64,000 nt of DNA from a phage, in the NCBI GenBank assembly GCA_022520065.1, contig GCA_022520065.1_3942.1; one strand, 5' to 3'. The notes below the pieces were generated by a model. The model did no database searches. It was not told the DNA's origin and worked only from the letters and a program-made list of their open reading frames with translations. Positions 2 to 7,330 of this stretch are shown here, one piece after another. The position numbers and the translations under genes are program-made. How positions within the stretch are numbered: position 1 is the stretch's first letter; each line of letters starts with the position of its first letter.

Positions 2-2171
<2,170 letters not shown>

Positions 2172-2173
2172 TA

Positions 2174-3346
2174 ATGGCAGTAGGTGAAATTCAAATTAGT
2201 GCCTTGCCTCAAGCATCCTTACCAATTGACCTTAGTGATATCTTCCATCTTAAGCAGGGTATTGAGGATAAGAGGTGTACTCTTGAGCAATTACTTGCTC
2301 CACACGCAAGCCTAAGAAATAACCCTCATGGTGTTACTAAAACACAAATTGGTTTAGATAATGTTATTAATGCTCTTCAGTTAGTCGCTGCAAATAACTT
2401 ATCAGATATTGTTAATGTAGCTGAGGCAAGAGCAAATCTACAGATTATGTCTTCAGAAGAGGTTAATAACCTTGTCCAGCAACATATCAAGGACAAGAGT
2501 AACCCACACAATACAACTAAGGCACAGGTTGGTTTAAGTAATGTTCAGAACTGGACAACATCTAATCTGTATAACGAAGATGCAGATAAGTATGCTACAG
2601 CAAGAGCAGTAAATAACTTGTACAAGGCTGTTCAGGCTTCTTATCCAGTAGGTGCTATCCATCTTTCTATGAACTCTGCAAACCCTTCCACATACTTAAT
2701 TTGTGGAGGTACTTGGGAGTTAGTTTCAAAAGGCAGGGCATTGGTTGGCTATGACTCTGATACAAGACCAGCAGGTTCTGTATTTGGCGCTTCAACTGTC
2801 ACTTTGTCAGTTAATAACATGCCTCAGCACTCCCACTCTGTGTCTCTTAGCGGTGGTGGTCACACTCATAATGCAACTGTGTCAATTTCAGCTTTTGATT
2901 ATGGGACTAAGACTACAAACTCTTTTGACTATGGGACAAAAGCTACTAACACAACTGGTAACCATACACACAGTGTGTCAGGTAACACTAGCACCAATGG
3001 TACTCACAACCATGATGTGTATCCTAGAGAAAATGATGGCACTGGTAATGCTGTGGCTGACTCTGATGGTGGTGGTGCAAGAAGGACATCAAGGACTTCT
3101 AGTGATGGTGCGCACTCACACAGCTTTAACGTCACATCTGGTGCATCAGGTGACCACAGCCACACGGTTGGTATTGGTGCTCACAGTCATACAGTTGGTA
3201 TTGGTTCACATACGCATAGTGGCACTGTAACAGTTTCTTCTTCTGAACATACACATAGTGGCAATACAAATAGTGTTGGTGGAGGTCAGGCAGTTAATAT
3301 TGAACAGCCATCCTTCGTACTGTATGTATGGCAGAGAACAGCTTAA
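2174..3346 (+). CDS. tail fibre protein with C-terminal HxH-repeat tip
   Basis: Repeated HSHxVGIG / HTHS motifs and FDYGTK repeats; C-terminal region paralogous to 3393..5747; both end in W-x-RTA. Confidence 0.7.
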   Translation: MAVGEIQISALPQASLPIDLSDIFHLKQGIEDKRCTLEQLLAPHASLRNNPHGVTKTQIGLDNVINALQLVAANNLSDIVNVAEARANLQIMSSEEVNNLVQQHIKDKSNPHNTTKAQVGLSNVQNWTTSNLYNEDADKYATARAVNNLYKAVQASYPVGAIHLSMNSANPSTYLICGGTWELVSKGRALVGYDSDTRPAGSVFGASTVTLSVNNMPQHSHSVSLSGGGHTHNATVSISAFDYGTKTTNSFDYGTKATNTTGNHTHSVSGNTSTNGTHNHDVYPRENDGTGNAVADSDGGGARRTSRTSSDGAHSHSFNVTSGASGDHSHTVGIGAHSHTVGIGSHTHSGTVTVSSSEHTHSGNTNSVGGGQAVNIEQPSFVLYVWQRTA

Positions 3347-3355
3347 TTTCTTTAC

Positions 3356-3376
3356 AGGGGCTTTATAGCCCCTTTT
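3356..3376 (+). terminator. intrinsic terminator-like hairpin between fibre genes
   Basis: AGGGGC-tttata-GCCCCT followed by TTTT. Confidence 0.45.
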
Positions 3377-3392
3377 AAGAGGAAAATTTATA

Positions 3393-5747
3393 ATGGCAGA
3401 TTACAAATTGAGTGAGCTAAACTCAATCGACACAATCCGTTCAGATGACCTTCTTCATGTCAGAGTTAAAAAGAGACCTGAAATGCTGGGTGATGAAGAC
3501 CGTCGAATGACCTATCAAGATTTCTTAGCATCTTTTAAGCTTGAAAGATTTGTTCAGATTGCTGGTAGCACTATGACGGGTGACTTAGGAATTGTTAAGC
3601 TACTTTACGGTGGCAAGGCTGTATTCGACCCCACAGGCTCTTCTGAGATTACTGTTGGTGATGTTTTAAAGACTTTTAAAATCAACGCAAACGGCCTTAA
3701 ACTAACTATTGCAGACGCTTCAAGGTCGGCAACTGTTTATCATACTTTGAATAAGCCAAGCCCTAATGAACTTGGGATGAGAACTAATGAAGAGAATGAC
3801 GCAAGGTATGCAAGACTAGCCGTGAATAATACCTTTAGAGGTACTCAAGCTATCCTCTCTGACAATGAAGCGCTCATTATTAAAAATATCACTCAAGGTG
3901 CTCCACTCTATCTTCGTGGTCAAGATGCAGATGGTACTAACAGATGGTATCTAGGTAATGATAATAGGGGTACAAATAATCTTGTATTGAAGAATGTAAA
4001 GTCTGACGTTTCAATTGCTATTTTAGAGAATTTGGTGACAGTCAACAGAACTCTTCAAATTGCTGGCCAAGTTCAGCCTTCAAGTTTTGCTAACTTAGAT
4101 GCTAGGTATTTTACCCAGACAGCAGCTAATCAGAGATTTGCGCAGTTAGCTGGCAATAATACATTTAGTGGTTCTAATATTTTCACTAATTTTGTTATTA
4201 AGAAGAATGCTAATGCTATTACTATTCAAAATGTAGATACAACTGCGGCTTTGTATATCCAAGCAAGGAAATCAGATGGAGCTAATAAGTGGTACATTGG
4301 TAATGATGGTGATGAAAACATTGTAAACATCTATAACTATTTAGCAAAAACACAAATCTCATTAGGTAACACCATTACCATGAGCAGAACAGTCCAAATT
4401 GGTGGTCAAGTACAACCTTCTGATTGGACTAACATTGATTCTAGATATATTCCGGCAGCCACTTTGAGTAATCTCCCTAAACTTAATGTGTCTAATACTT
4501 TTACAAATGTGCAAACTATTGTATCTAACAACGAGGGTTTGGTATTAAGGAACTTGACACAGGGGCAGCCACTATATATCCGTGGTGTTGATACTGAGAA
4601 TGTTTCTAGATGGTGGTTAGGTGTAGGTGGTCCAAACTCTAATGTGGTAACACTTAACAACAACTATTCTGACACTAAAATCTCACTTGGTGGCTCATCA
4701 GTAATGACTAATAAGAGCTTAGCTATTACTGGTCAAGTACAACCTTCTGACTTCTCTAACTTAGATGCTAGATACTATACCCAAGCTGCCGCAAACGCAA
4801 GATATATGCTTGCAAGCATCACTGGTTCGGCTTCTGAAGCAGATGGTGGTGATGGTGTTGCATGGGATGCAAAAACAGGTCTTTATAAGGTTACTAACAC
4901 CACTGGACAGTCTTCTTCACTTGTATATCACATGTTTTTAGGGACTAGTTCTACACCATCTGCACAATTAAAGTTTTCGTTTAAAAATGGTGGGATGTGG
5001 TATAGAACATCAAGAGATGCCTATGGCTTCGAAGTTAATTGGTCTAAAGTTTACACGGAAGCACAAAAACCAACCCCTTCAGAGATTGGTGCATACACTA
5101 AAGCTGAAACTGACCAGAAAATTGCAACAGCAATTAGTGACTCTACAGACCTTAACAAAATCTATCCAGTTGGTATTGTAACGTGGTTTAACAGTAATGT
5201 TAACCCTAATACAGCACTCCCTGGTCTAACTTGGACGTACCTGAATAATGGTGTTGGTAGAACTATCAGAATCGCAGCAGCAAACGGTTCAGATGTTGCT
5301 ACAACTGGTGGTTCAGATTCTGTGACATTAGCTGTTGGTAACTTACCATCACACACTCACAGTTTCTCTGCTACCACTTCATCTTTTGATTATGGTACGA
5401 AGAACACTAACAGTACTGGTGCACATACCCATTCAGTTAGTGGTACTGCTGCATCTGCTGGGCAACACGCACACAGAATTTCACAGGGTGACAACGCTAA
5501 CGTTTCATCAGGTAGAGTCGCATCTTCAAACTCTGCTCAGACCCATGTTGGTTGGACTGAAAATGATGGTGTTCACACCCACTCAGTTAGTGGTACTGCT
5601 GCATCTGCTGGTGGACATGCTCACTCTGTAGGTATTGGTGCTCATAGCCACACAGTTAGTGGTAACACTGGTGGTACAGGTTCTGGTTCAGCATTTAGTG
5701 TTACTAACCAGTTCTACAAGTTAATGGCTTGGGTAAGAACTGCTTAA
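3393..5747 (+). CDS. large tail fibre protein (three internal repeats plus HxH tip)
   Basis: 784 aa; three repeats of ~110 aa each ending in Q(I/A)xGQVQPSxFxNLDARY; C-terminal FDYGTKNTN and HSHTV repeats shared with 2174..3346. Confidence 0.75.
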   Translation: MADYKLSELNSIDTIRSDDLLHVRVKKRPEMLGDEDRRMTYQDFLASFKLERFVQIAGSTMTGDLGIVKLLYGGKAVFDPTGSSEITVGDVLKTFKINANGLKLTIADASRSATVYHTLNKPSPNELGMRTNEENDARYARLAVNNTFRGTQAILSDNEALIIKNITQGAPLYLRGQDADGTNRWYLGNDNRGTNNLVLKNVKSDVSIAILENLVTVNRTLQIAGQVQPSSFANLDARYFTQTAANQRFAQLAGNNTFSGSNIFTNFVIKKNANAITIQNVDTTAALYIQARKSDGANKWYIGNDGDENIVNIYNYLAKTQISLGNTITMSRTVQIGGQVQPSDWTNIDSRYIPAATLSNLPKLNVSNTFTNVQTIVSNNEGLVLRNLTQGQPLYIRGVDTENVSRWWLGVGGPNSNVVTLNNNYSDTKISLGGSSVMTNKSLAITGQVQPSDFSNLDARYYTQAAANARYMLASITGSASEADGGDGVAWDAKTGLYKVTNTTGQSSSLVYHMFLGTSSTPSAQLKFSFKNGGMWYRTSRDAYGFEVNWSKVYTEAQKPTPSEIGAYTKAETDQKIATAISDSTDLNKIYPVGIVTWFNSNVNPNTALPGLTWTYLNNGVGRTIRIAAANGSDVATTGGSDSVTLAVGNLPSHTHSFSATTSSFDYGTKNTNSTGAHTHSVSGTAASAGQHAHRISQGDNANVSSGRVASSNSAQTHVGWTENDGVHTHSVSGTAASAGGHAHSVGIGAHSHTVSGNTGGTGSGSAFSVTNQFYKLMAWVRTA

Positions 5748-5754
5748 TCCCTTG

Positions 5755-5783
5755 TTGACTGATTGTTAAGATGGTGTTAATAT
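5755..5783 (+). promoter_or_regulatory. sigma70-like promoter TTGACT-N17-TAATAT
   Basis: Hexamers at 5755-5760 and 5778-5783 with 17-nt spacer; inverted repeat AGATGGTG/CACCATCT (5770-5807) spans the -10. Confidence 0.45.
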
Positions 5784-5826
5784 TCTTTATGGGTATTCTC
5801 ACCATCTTGGCTGATGAGGTGATTAA

Positions 5827-6024: not shown

Positions 6025-6392
6025 AGTGGCTAGAGGAAGCTTTTAAAAATAATATTGGTGCAATTGTAGTTGGTATTTTTAGTGTTATTGGGATGTATAC
6101 CACCATGCAAGTTTCGGATGGTAAGCAAGAAGTGTCTGTCACAACAAAGTTACAGCAGCTAGATAATTACAGCAAAGCTAATTACTCAGCTATTCGTGAT
6201 TTACAGTCTGACATGAGACTGATTCAGCTAGGGATGGAGAACCAGAAAGTTCAGTTAGAGAATGTTAAGGGCGAGAACGCAAAACTTACTAAAACCCTTG
6301 ATAAATTCTCTGACAGCGTGAACAATCTGGCTCAATCAGTATCAGCCTTGCAAGCTATTACTGAAAAGAACACAAAGAATACTGAAAAATAA
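6021..6392 (+). CDS. membrane-anchored coiled-coil protein
   Basis: N-terminal TM-like segment (IGAIVVGIFSVIGMY) followed by heptad-rich region; ATGA overlap with upstream gene. Confidence 0.45.
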   Translation: MKWLEEAFKNNIGAIVVGIFSVIGMYTTMQVSDGKQEVSVTTKLQQLDNYSKANYSAIRDLQSDMRLIQLGMENQKVQLENVKGENAKLTKTLDKFSDSVNNLAQSVSALQAITEKNTKNTEK

Positions 6393-6399
6393 AATTTAA

Positions 6400-6426
6400 G
6401 GCTCCTTTTTTACGGGAGCCTTTTTT
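6400..6426. terminator. bidirectional intrinsic terminator between convergent genes
   Basis: GGCTCC-loop-GGGAGCC with T-run on + strand and A-run upstream (T-run on - strand). Confidence 0.6.
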
Positions 6427-6430
6427 GTTT

Positions 6431-7330
6431 TTACTTGCCTACTGACAGAGGTGCTTCAATCTTTCCTGCATGTTGGTAGTTGTTAATGCCACCAATAAAA
6501 TCACTTGCAGTAAGATGTTTCAGGTCACTTAAAGTATTAAGTGGTAGACCAATCTCAAAAGTTGGTGCATGGAACTCTTCATTGTTCAGTAGTTCATAAA
6601 CCTGTTTCATGTGGTTCTGATAAATCTGAGTATCTCCAAAGACACCTATCAAGTACCGTGGAGTGTGTCCAGTCATCTTACAAAGAACTTCCAGAATAAA
6701 ACCATAAGATGCAATATTAAACGGGAGTCCTAAAAAGGTGTCTACTGAACGCTGATACCATTGTAAGTCAACTTCACCCTCGTTAGTGATATAAATCTGA
6801 AACAGAACATGACAAGGTGCTAAAGCCATTGAGTTTGCTGCAATATCTGCTGCATTCCAAGCATTAACAAGCATGTAACGGTCTGTGATATCACCCTTCA
6901 TCTTCGTTACTAAGGTCTCTAGTTGGTCTACAACACAACCATTATGACCTTCAAAGTTTCTCCACTGAACCCCATAAATCCTTCCACCTGCATCATCTAA
7001 CCAATCTTGTTCAGAAGAATAATTAGAGCTTAACCAGCGTTTAAAATCATCTGACCAGATAGTCCAGCGTTCTCCGTCATTTTCACCCCAAGTACGGTAA
7101 CGAAGTTCGCCCAACTTATTCTCGCCATTCAGGAACCATAAAGCTTCCCCAATAACTTGCCGTGTAAACACCTGTTTAGATGTTAAGAGCGGGAAACCAG
7201 TTCGCATATCAAAACGAAACTGAGGTGGAGCAAATGCAGATATAACATCTCCAGTTCGTGTAGTACGCAGTTCACCAACGGATAAAACATGGTTCAGGAT
7301 ATTTTTGTAACTTGTATCTGCTTGTGACAT
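6431..7330 (-). CDS. thyA: thymidylate synthase
   Basis: Motifs GFPLLTSKQ, EALWFLNG and catalytic PCH (ALAPCHVLFQIY). Confidence 0.9.
   Translation of the reverse strand: MSQADTSYKNILNHVLSVGELRTTRTGDVISAFAPPQFRFDMRTGFPLLTSKQVFTRQVIGEALWFLNGENKLGELRYRTWGENDGERWTIWSDDFKRWLSSNYSSEQDWLDDAGGRIYGVQWRNFEGHNGCVVDQLETLVTKMKGDITDRYMLVNAWNAADIAANSMALAPCHVLFQIYITNEGEVDLQWYQRSVDTFLGLPFNIASYGFILEVLCKMTGHTPRYLIGVFGDTQIYQNHMKQVYELLNNEEFHAPTFEIGLPLNTLSDLKHLTASDFIGGINNYQHAGKIEAPLSVGK

Follow-up and report, generated by a model that had tools for sequence, protein, structure and literature searches.

Short and long tail fibers of a Felix O1-like myovirus with T4 gp37-type tips and different heads

Positions 2174 to 5747 of a 64,000-nucleotide (nt) phage contig (GCA_022520065.1_3942.1 of assembly GCA_022520065.1; the whole stretch that was analyzed is called the window) contain two tail-fiber genes, which encode a short tail fiber (STF) of 390 amino acids (aa) and a long tail fiber (LTF) of 784 aa. 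With a probability of about 90%, this region encodes the two fiber sets of a Felix O1-like myovirus, both of which carry tips of the T4 gp37 type and have the architecture listed in Table 1. An original prediction, made from the letters of the window, had recognized the two genes, and both were found at the predicted places on the plus strand. The prediction had also read the shared tips as an outcome of domain exchange between receptor-binding proteins. This did not hold for the genome in question: the shared part is a scaffold, and the heads on top of it differ.

Identity of the phage and of the two fibers

The window was identified as a Felixounavirus genome, that of a Felix O1-like myovirus of the subfamily Ounavirinae. 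The fiber region was 99.9% identical at the nt level to the Escherichia phages vB_EcoM_ULIM8 and ULIM3, in which both open reading frames (ORFs) are annotated as tail fibers, and 99.6% and 96.4% identical to VpaE1_ev108 and ev035, respectively. A total of 241 phage records matched the region, nearly all of them felixounaviruses of Escherichia, Salmonella, Citrobacter, and Shigella. Synteny, with fibers of about 390 and 785 aa, and the high nt identity to the genus assigned the two genes to the STF/LTF pair of the felixounaviruses. STF matched PHROG 2097 (tail fiber) with an E value of 7e-138, and LTF matched PHROG 4277 (tail fiber) over its full length with an E value of 0. STF is a homolog of gp74 and LTF of gp75 of phage VpaE1, and by gene order and architecture they are the counterparts of gp26 and gp27 of phage Bas63.

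T4 gp37-type tips at the C termini of both fibers

Judged from their sequences, both C termini are true homologs of the receptor-binding tip of T4 gp37. Residues 145 to 362 of STF aligned to the structure of the T4 gp37 tip (PDB 2XGF) with an E value of 1.2e-29, and residues 648 to 763 of LTF did so with an E value of 3.7e-14. The domain limits in Table 1 are those of T4 gp37 (collar or D10, 811 to 881 and 1010 to 1026; stem or D11, 882 to 931 and 960 to 1009; tip, 932 to 959; Islam et al. 2019, PMC6957217), carried over by a three-way alignment of STF, LTF, and T4 gp37. The collar of STF aligned to 2XGF as well as to T4 gp10 chains, and residues 154 to 263 of STF matched the Pfam family Gp10_C with 63.2 bits at a cut-off of 27. 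The C-terminal W-x-R-x-A strand aligned to T4 residues 1010 to 1026, which run back into the collar as a strand; W386 and R388 of STF were invariant among 44 homologs. The motifs FDYGTK, HSHTVGIGAHSH, and W-x-RTA, which had been named in the prediction, were all present.

The histidine-rich arms of the needle agreed with this assignment. STF possesses nine HxH motifs, at positions 219, 230, 264, and 278 of the ascending arm and 314, 328, 337, 346, and 359 of the descending arm, and all 18 of the 18 histidines of its tip reside in them. LTF contains six, at 654, 678, and 692 in the ascending and 728, 742, and 751 in the descending arm. When the tips were shuffled with preservation of their composition, a mean of 1.6 motifs resulted for STF and none of 20,000 shuffles reached nine, while the mean was 1.1 for LTF and 1 of 20,000 shuffles reached six. 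The motifs of both fibers fell into register with the seven HxH motifs that bind Fe in T4 (883, 915, 929, 966, 980, 989, and 998), so that STF has two rungs more and LTF one rung fewer than T4. The idea in the prediction that these motifs are of a metal-binding kind agreed with the alignment of both tips to the iron-binding T4 needle. Column by column, ten His positions were invariant or nearly so in the 44 homologs. The sequence HSHTVGIGAHSH at residues 328 to 339 of STF corresponds to HAHSVGIGAHSH at residues 742 to 753 of LTF, and FDYGTK occurs twice in the ascending arm of STF (241 to 246 and 251 to 256) and once in that of LTF (665 to 670). The needle arms of LTF are shorter than those of STF, by about 21 aa on the ascending and about 20 aa on the descending side. 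A needle shaped like a hairpin requires such matched changes, which indirectly support this topology.

Table 1 Features of the fiber region and their positions in the window
Feature	Residues (aa)	Position	Strand	Basis
Protein of 100 aa directly 5' of the fibers		1869..2171	+	Gene order and sizes as in Bas63 and in the AYO145A annotation
STF gene, 390 aa, ending with ...YVWQRTA		2174-3346	+	ORF list
STF N-terminal, putatively baseplate-binding domain and short shaft	1-154	2174..2635	+	Most conserved part of STF
STF collar, T4 gp37 D10/gp10 C-terminal type	155-218	2636..2827	+	Pfam Gp10_C
STF ascending needle arm	219-280	2828..3013	+	Alignment to T4 gp37 883-931
STF head, at the presumed chain reversal	~281-313	3014..3112	+	Alignment to T4 gp37 tip subdomain 932-959
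STF descending arm and return strand (..VWQRTA)	314-390	3113..3343	+	Alignment to T4 gp37 960-1026
Intergenic hairpin		3347..3383	+	Fold; conservation in relatives
LTF gene, 784 aa, ending with ...MAWVRTA		3393-5747	+	ORF list
LTF N-terminal, putatively baseplate-binding region	1-144	3393..3824	+	Role by analogy to Bas63
LTF three tandem shaft repeats	145-478	3825..4826	+	Segment alignment, hidden Markov model, Pfam gp37_trimer
LTF repeat R1	145-254	3825-4154	+	
LTF repeat R2	255-366	4155-4490	+	
LTF repeat R3	367-478	4491-4826	+	
LTF internal globular domain, Pfam gp37_C (PF12604)	480-585	4830..5147	+	Homologous to part of Mu S
LTF collar	588-653	5154..5351	+	Alignment to the STF collar
LTF ascending needle arm	654-694	5352..5474	+	Alignment to 2XGF and three-way alignment
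LTF head, other type than the STF head	~695-727	5475..5573	+	Variability among relatives
LTF descending arm and return strand (..MAWVRTA)	728-784	5574..5744	+	Alignment to 2XGF and three-way alignment
Putative exchangeable LTF head cassette		5422..5612	+	Comparison with AYO145A and T4 gene 37

The shafts of the two fibers are built differently. STF has a short shaft, and the motif NPHxxTKxQ(I/V)GLxNV occurs twice in its N-terminal part (residues 50 to 64 and 110 to 124), where it was also visible as a DNA repeat family (D9). For LTF, three tandem repeats of about 110 aa had been predicted, and three approaches agreed on them. Pairwise BLASTP alignments of the segments R1 to R3 gave 36 to 50% identity with E values from 5e-19 to 8e-38, and Pfam gp37_trimer (PF20744) covered three stretches with 207.4 bits at a cut-off of 21.7 and an E value of 2.5e-62. 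A hidden Markov model (HMM) of the repeat, built from 42 copies in 14 phages, found exactly three in LTF with E values from 1e-41 to 1e-45. Comparison of the whole fibers with themselves by BLASTP returned the identity match only, so that the repeats were demonstrated by segment alignment and the HMM. At the DNA level, they appeared as family D2 with spacings of 339 and 327 nt. Each repeat closes with the linker GQVQPSxFxNLDARY; the linkers were conserved (71 to 82% identity) and the cores variable (32 to 53%). The following globular domain matched gp37_C with 71.2 bits (cut-off 22.5, E value of 8e-20), and residues 480 to 581 aligned to residues 330 to 430 of the tail fiber protein S of phage Mu (PDB 8JU3) with an E value of 3.7e-21.

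From these data, a model of the two fibers can be derived. STF and LTF would each form a homotrimer, and their conserved N termini would plug into the baseplate, STF on a wedge protein and LTF probably on the 100-aa platform protein; for STF, baseplate binding of the N terminus is suggested by the cryo-electron microscopy (cryo-EM) structure of Bas63. LTF would owe its greater length to the three repeats of its shaft and to the globular domain resembling Mu S. In each tip, the chain would leave the collar with the ascending arm of the needle, pass through a small head, return with the descending arm, and end as the W-x-R-T-A strand in the collar. The needle of the trimer would be six-stranded, and at each HxH motif the three chains would provide six histidines holding one metal ion, which is Fe2+ in T4, so that 9 metal sites are predicted for STF and 6 for LTF. 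The HxH arms, the collar, and the return strand are the conserved scaffold, and the head, located in the middle of the tip sequence and least similar between STF and LTF, would be the receptor-contacting part at the hairpin turn. Specificity would thus be set by the head instead of the His-rich arms, presumably toward sugars of the lipopolysaccharide (LPS) as in other felixounaviruses. The heads of STF and LTF belong to unrelated types, and the two fibers would probably recognize different structures.

Several observations weigh against this model. The collar of LTF scored 26.0 bits with Gp10_C, marginally under the cut-off. An AlphaFold 2 (AF2) model of the STF monomer, calculated with the 44-sequence alignment, reached a mean predicted local distance difference test (pLDDT) of 66.7 and a predicted template modeling score of 0.33; the pLDDT was 86 to 90 in the blocks of residues 141 to 180 and 69 to 80 in those of residues 181 to 210, while the needle was poorly modeled with about 50 to 60. 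A Foldseek comparison of this model with the PDB did not retrieve 2XGF; the best matches were weak and concerned T4 gp10-type baseplate chains (9f4b_FA, E value of 2.7e-3; 5iv5_AC, 6.6e-3). Since a monomer is unable to mimic the interdigitation of a trimer, the AF2 and Foldseek results are uninformative, and sequence homology was relied on instead. Three shaft repeats were detected by the HMM versus five beta-helix domains in the Bas63 paper. A fourth or fifth repeat was sought in LTF, and the segment 5' of R1 was only 12 to 21% identical while the HMM gave none beyond three; the extra two, if present, are undetectable by sequence.

A homolog of the T4 chaperone gp38 was not found in the 64-kb window either (best tblastn E value of 0.66). 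T4 gp37 needs gp38 and gp57A; no search was made for the latter, and the window does not cover the complete genome. The folding of gp37-type tips may therefore differ in this phage. This difference concerns the assembly and not the fold, and the tips stay in the T4 gp37 structural family. The present data show homology, architecture, motif statistics, and a mosaic pattern, while trimerization, metal binding, the receptor, and the attachment sites are inferences from T4, Bas63, and Sf14. A search for a third gp37-type tip yielded none in the 64-kb window.

Block-wise variability and the roles of the two fibers

STF and LTF of 14 Ounavirinae were aligned, and the identity was profiled in blocks of 20 aa. 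N termini, collars, and HxH arms were 85 to 99% conserved, and the identity fell to 23 to 44% in the heads. Mean pairwise identities in STF were 88 to 99% for residues 1 to 154 and 35 to 42% for the head, which was the most variable block with only 10 to 25% versus some relatives. In LTF, they were 84 to 97% for residues 1 to 144, 88 to 92% for the collar, 85 to 96% for the descending arm, and 23 to 44% for the head. The cores of the LTF repeats and the Mu S-like domain varied independently, block by block, with conserved linkers in between. The LTF of ULIM9, for instance, was 95 to 100% identical to that of the window almost throughout, and 10 to 30% identical in residues 461 to 560. This block (4773-5072 in the window) comprises the Mu S-like domain and was swapped as a unit in ULIM9, skuden, and SP2 SHa-2019, with 5 to 35% identity in the block versus 85 to 100% in its flanks. 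The eye-catching conserved His-rich sequence, which is naturally misread as a receptor-binding surface, is the scaffold. The suggested modularity of the host range was borne out as a modularity of the fibers in this phage group; exchange was seen in relatives and was confined to the head cassette, a unit of about 190 nt.

Over all columns, the mean identity was 69% for LTF, with five independently varying blocks, and 81% for STF. The stronger mosaicism of LTF fits a refinement of the model in which labor is divided as in T4. LTF would establish a reversible, specific first contact and would alone determine the host range, and STF would act like gp12, binding irreversibly to the LPS core after a change of the baseplate. 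Bas63 indeed possesses two fiber sets of different length and with different baseplate sites (STF, 430 Å; LTF, 630 Å; PMC12609058), and the authors of the VpaE1 study found gp75, the LTF, to be an outlier among the structural proteins (PMC4690856). On the other hand, the STF head is also hypervariable (10 to 40%), which is unexpected for a fiber that binds an invariant core sugar, the STF needle resembles gp37 and not gp12, and the role of the short fibers in relatives of Felix O1 is unexplored according to the BASEL paper. Such a division of labor is a possibility with somewhat worse than even prospects.

Head cassettes in relatives of the phage

The boundaries of the mobile unit became visible in phage AYO145A (KR014248.1). 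Its LTF gene was 92 to 98% identical to the window at the nt level on both flanks of the head, while the part corresponding to 5422-5612 of the window was 86 to 93% identical to T4 gene 37. Within this stretch, 96 of the 101 informative sites grouped AYO145A with T4, and nearly all of those in the flanks grouped it with the window. The junctions were located in the DNA that encodes FDYGTK and HSVGIGAHSH, where the window, AYO145A, and T4 were 79 to 89% identical. With the cassette of AYO145A, an adhesin module was cleanly transferred between families, from a T4-like phage to a felixounavirus, which may serve as a tidy example of such an exchange. T4-like LTF heads were also observed in L27 and REP8, with these ranges of nt identity to T4 gene 37 in the cassette and to the window in the flanks; the copy in AYO145A is located at about 6255-6448.

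Two other phages displayed an exchange of a different kind. In VSe11 (Salmonella virus, MG251391.1), the head regions of STF and LTF were 81% identical at the aa level, and 195 nt were 83% identical (1051-1245 and 3507-3701). The STF and LTF heads of SP2 SHa-2019, which also infects Salmonella, shared 67% aa identity. The near-copies in VSe11 indicate that an exchange between STF and LTF within one genome does happen, although not in the phage of the window. In VSe11 and SP2 SHa-2019, both fiber sets probably bind the same receptor, unlike those of the window phage. The LTF head type of the window was uncommon. It was present with at least 90% identity in 9 phage records, with 71 to 75% in myoviruses of about 53 kb (ST32-like), and with 55 to 62% in a few T4-like phages.

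In the model of the two fibers, FDYGTK and HSVGIGAHSH are structural motifs, and their conserved coding DNA borders the head and doubles as a pair of crossover sites at which homologous recombination swaps head cassettes between phages. A more far-reaching explanation is held with slightly better than even confidence. The DNA coding for FDYGTK and H(S/A)H(T/S)VGIGAHSH would mark the fixed ends of a portable cassette, about 190 nt long, that contains the head and moves by homologous recombination: among the LTFs of felixounaviruses, between STF and LTF of one genome as in VSe11, and across families, with gene 37 of T4-like phages as the donor for AYO145A, L27, and REP8 and the LTF head type of the window as the donor for ST32-like myoviruses and some tequatroviruses. 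The phage of the window would carry two different cassettes and hence have two receptor specificities. The cores of the LTF repeats and the Mu S-like knob would be further modules for specificity or adhesion and not inert spacers.

Similarity of the two tips within the window genome

The original prediction rested on the similarity of the two tips to each other, and this similarity is real. The C termini of STF and LTF were 38% identical across 190 aa (E value of 7e-28 in BLASTP with composition adjustment), and the alignment took in a non-repetitive collar segment (YPVGAIHLSMNSANPSTYL.. against YPVGIVTWFNSNVNPNTAL..). An exchange or copying of a receptor-binding domain between the STF and LTF genes, if it had occurred recently in this genome, would explain tips that align across about 190 to 240 aa and would resemble the situation in VSe11 and SP2 SHa-2019 with their near-copies of the heads. 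The degree of identity makes this very improbable. The tips of the window were 38 to 43% identical, and each was 39 to 42% identical to T4 gp37, locally up to 49%. The heads with their flanking arms (STF, 262 to 330; LTF, 676 to 744) shared 33%, nearly all of it histidine and glycine of the HxH framework. The longest DNA repeat families common to both genes comprised 27 to 60 nt, with copies 60 to 85% identical to the reference, and there was no long tract above 90% nt identity. In the 14 genomes, identities within a type (STF-STF, 52 to 100%; LTF-LTF, 52 to 98%) were generally above those between the types (STF-LTF, 32 to 58%). An identity of the tips no higher than that to T4 gp37 and the lack of a long, highly identical DNA repeat indicate that no recent exchange occurred in this genome. 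STF and LTF are old paralogs from a widespread tip family, equipped with different heads.

An origin of the similarity as a low-complexity artifact of the His/Gly/Thr/Ser composition can practically be dismissed: the needle arms are compositionally biased with HxHxV(G/A)IG units repeating every 9 aa, but the E value of 7e-28 was adjusted for composition and the alignment included the collar, both proteins matched the solved gp37 tip and Gp10_C (LTF marginally under the cut-off of the latter), and HxH motifs were kept column-wise in the 44 homologs, with 1 to 2 motifs in shuffled tips instead of 6 to 9.

Comparison with known systems

The genes, their gp37-like HxH tips, and their variability have been published for the genus (VpaE1 in 2015, Sf14 and Bas63 in 2025), so that the feature as such is already known. 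What the present analysis adds are the exact coordinates of domains and cassette, the finding that the variability is mosaic, changing block by block with junctions located in conserved motifs, the T4-derived cassette in some Felixounavirus LTFs, the sharing of heads between STF and LTF in the VSe11 genome, and a variant of the STF needle with nine rungs. The module boundaries (heads at 3014-3112 and 5475-5573 and the junctions at the motifs) could guide the engineering of the host range of Felix O1-like therapeutic phages.

Bas63 (JohannRWettstein), studied by cryo-EM in 2025 (PMC12609058), carries a short and a long fiber that have the collar, the HxH needle, and the head in common. In that paper, di-histidine motifs were counted in comparison to T4, and the tips and LTF repeats were described as highly variable across the genus. 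The phage of the window agrees with Bas63 in genus, architecture, and gene order, which is wedge 2 (489 aa), wedge 1 (285 aa), long-fiber platform, STF gp26, and LTF gp27 in Bas63 (PMC12609058). According to the published description, the STF of Bas63 has 7 HxH motifs, like the relatives skuden and warpig, versus 9 in the window, HHxH stands at the LTF position where the window has HAH (692 to 694), and the head cassettes are of other types.

Both gp74 and gp75 of VpaE1 are present in the virion, and their C termini resemble T4 gp37, with conserved N termini and variable C termini (Simoliunas et al. 2015, PMC4690856). They are orthologous to STF and LTF of the window and belong to the same lineage; VpaE1_ev108 and ev035, mentioned above, are derivatives of VpaE1. 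The STF head of the original VpaE1 was 91% identical to that of the window. The original VpaE1 was not among the records with the LTF head type of the window, so that a different head type is probable for its LTF. For Sf14, two retracted fiber sets with a gp37-like distal tip were described in 2025 (PMC11821841), and a hybrid of Mu-like and T4-like fibers was described in the Sf14 and Bas63 papers (PMC11821841, PMC12609058). In agreement with the Sf14 paper, the gp37_C domain of LTF, unlike that of Mu S, is internal and followed by a whole gp37-type tip, and a Mu-type fiber chaperone gene is not adjacent.

With D10 and D11 of T4 gp37, the tips share the collar, HxH motifs on both needle arms, and the motifs FDYGTK and HSVGIGAH(S/T)H, and they would also share the six-stranded needle, the head at the chain reversal, and the strand returning to the collar. 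The identity to T4 gp37 is only about 40%, and 7 HxH motifs in T4 are opposed to 9 in STF and 6 in LTF. The tips of the window reside on much shorter fibers of a single protein, while the T4 fiber is composed of four proteins, and a gp38-type chaperone gene is not adjacent, unlike in T4. The receptor is presumably only LPS. The heads of the window phage are not T4-like, whereas those of AYO145A, L27, and REP8 are. The "His boxes" in gene 37 of the T-even adhesins reportedly flank variable specificity segments and act as crossovers. The junctions in the DNA coding for FDYGTK and HSVGIGAHSH resemble this recombination in T-even phages. Unlike there, the exchange crosses families, from gene 37 of Straboviridae to the LTF of Ounavirinae in AYO145A, and paralogous fibers in VSe11.

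The intergenic hairpin

A terminator-like hairpin had been predicted between the two genes, and the hairpin itself was found; its function as a terminator is unproven, since the U tract is short and missing in relatives from the genus Mooglevirus. The core AGGGGCU-UUAU-AGCCCCU pairs 3356-3362 with 3367-3373 over 7 bp, 5 of which are G-C, and is followed by UUU. UUUCUUU (3347-3353) and AAGAGGA (3377-3383), the Shine-Dalgarno (SD) sequence of LTF, may form an outer stem, which is suggestive and could easily be due to chance. The minimum free energy of 3347-3383 was −16.8 kcal/mol (z = −1.99). All 14 relatives kept the stem while their loops varied, and EcoM2 contained a double change from G-C to A-U. 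At the equivalent site, a rho-independent terminator is annotated in AYO145A and a terminator in Moogle. A rho-independent terminator would combine a GC-rich stem with a U tract of at least 5; the tract at the hairpin was only 4 long, and the relatives Sf19 and Moogle had none. A scan for consensus terminators did not call the hairpin at 3356-3373 because of this short U run.

The hairpin is probably functional, be it as an attenuator, as a stabilizer of the transcript, or as an element that occludes the SD sequence. It is unlikely, albeit with an appreciable chance, that it serves specifically as a leaky intrinsic terminator or SD-occluding structure to lower the expression of LTF compared to STF. 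The conservation of the stem despite changes in the loop, a single compensatory double change, the annotation as a terminator in two relatives, the predicted pairing with the SD sequence, and the sub-stoichiometric occupancy of LTF in Bas63 particles (PMC12609058) would agree with such a function. The U tract of 4 or, in Sf19 and Moogle, of none, the outcome of the consensus scan, and the modest z score speak against it. Moreover, a U-rich tract pairs easily with a purine-rich SD sequence by chance, and the low occupancy in Bas63 may be a mere loss of fibers.

Neighboring genes and further observations

The fiber genes are preceded by genes for a Baseplate_J-like wedge, a 285-aa wedge, and the 100-aa protein and followed by those of two small membrane or holin-like proteins, beyond which thymidylate synthase (thyA) and dihydrofolate reductase are encoded on the opposite strand. 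The 100-aa protein matched PHROG 4141, a family without an assigned function. By synteny, it is probably the long-fiber platform of the baseplate, a T4 gp9-like counterpart of gp25 of Bas63. Scans of the 64-kb window for tRNAs and with Rfam gave zero matches.

A few database records deserve comment. In the Salmonella phage Si3 (KY626162.1), the LTF gene is divided into two coding sequences (1518-2879 and 2926-3861), and the LTF of Si3 looks truncated according to the Bas63 paper (PMC12609058), in agreement with the split. It is probably due to a frameshift or a sequencing error. Two records labeled "Campylobacter" were among the matches to the fiber locus, and GU169904.1 (83432-84166), named Staphylococcus phage SA1, contains a short fiber of the Felixounavirus type with 65% identity across the whole tip. 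These are likely mislabeled or mixed records and not real host jumps.

Two elements were observed downstream of the fibers. Directly after the stop codon of LTF, positions 5755-5808 contain a sigma-70-like site (TTGACT, 17 nt, TAATAT, with an extended −10 TG). This site and a 15-nt inverted repeat (5768-5782 and 5794-5808) overlap just 5' of the gene for a 65-aa membrane protein, and the element may regulate the lysis genes. Between the converging genes for a 123-aa holin-like protein and thymidylate synthase, there is a strong hairpin that resembles a terminator and is flanked by T runs on either side (6398-6422); its counterpart in AYO145A is annotated as a bidirectional terminator.

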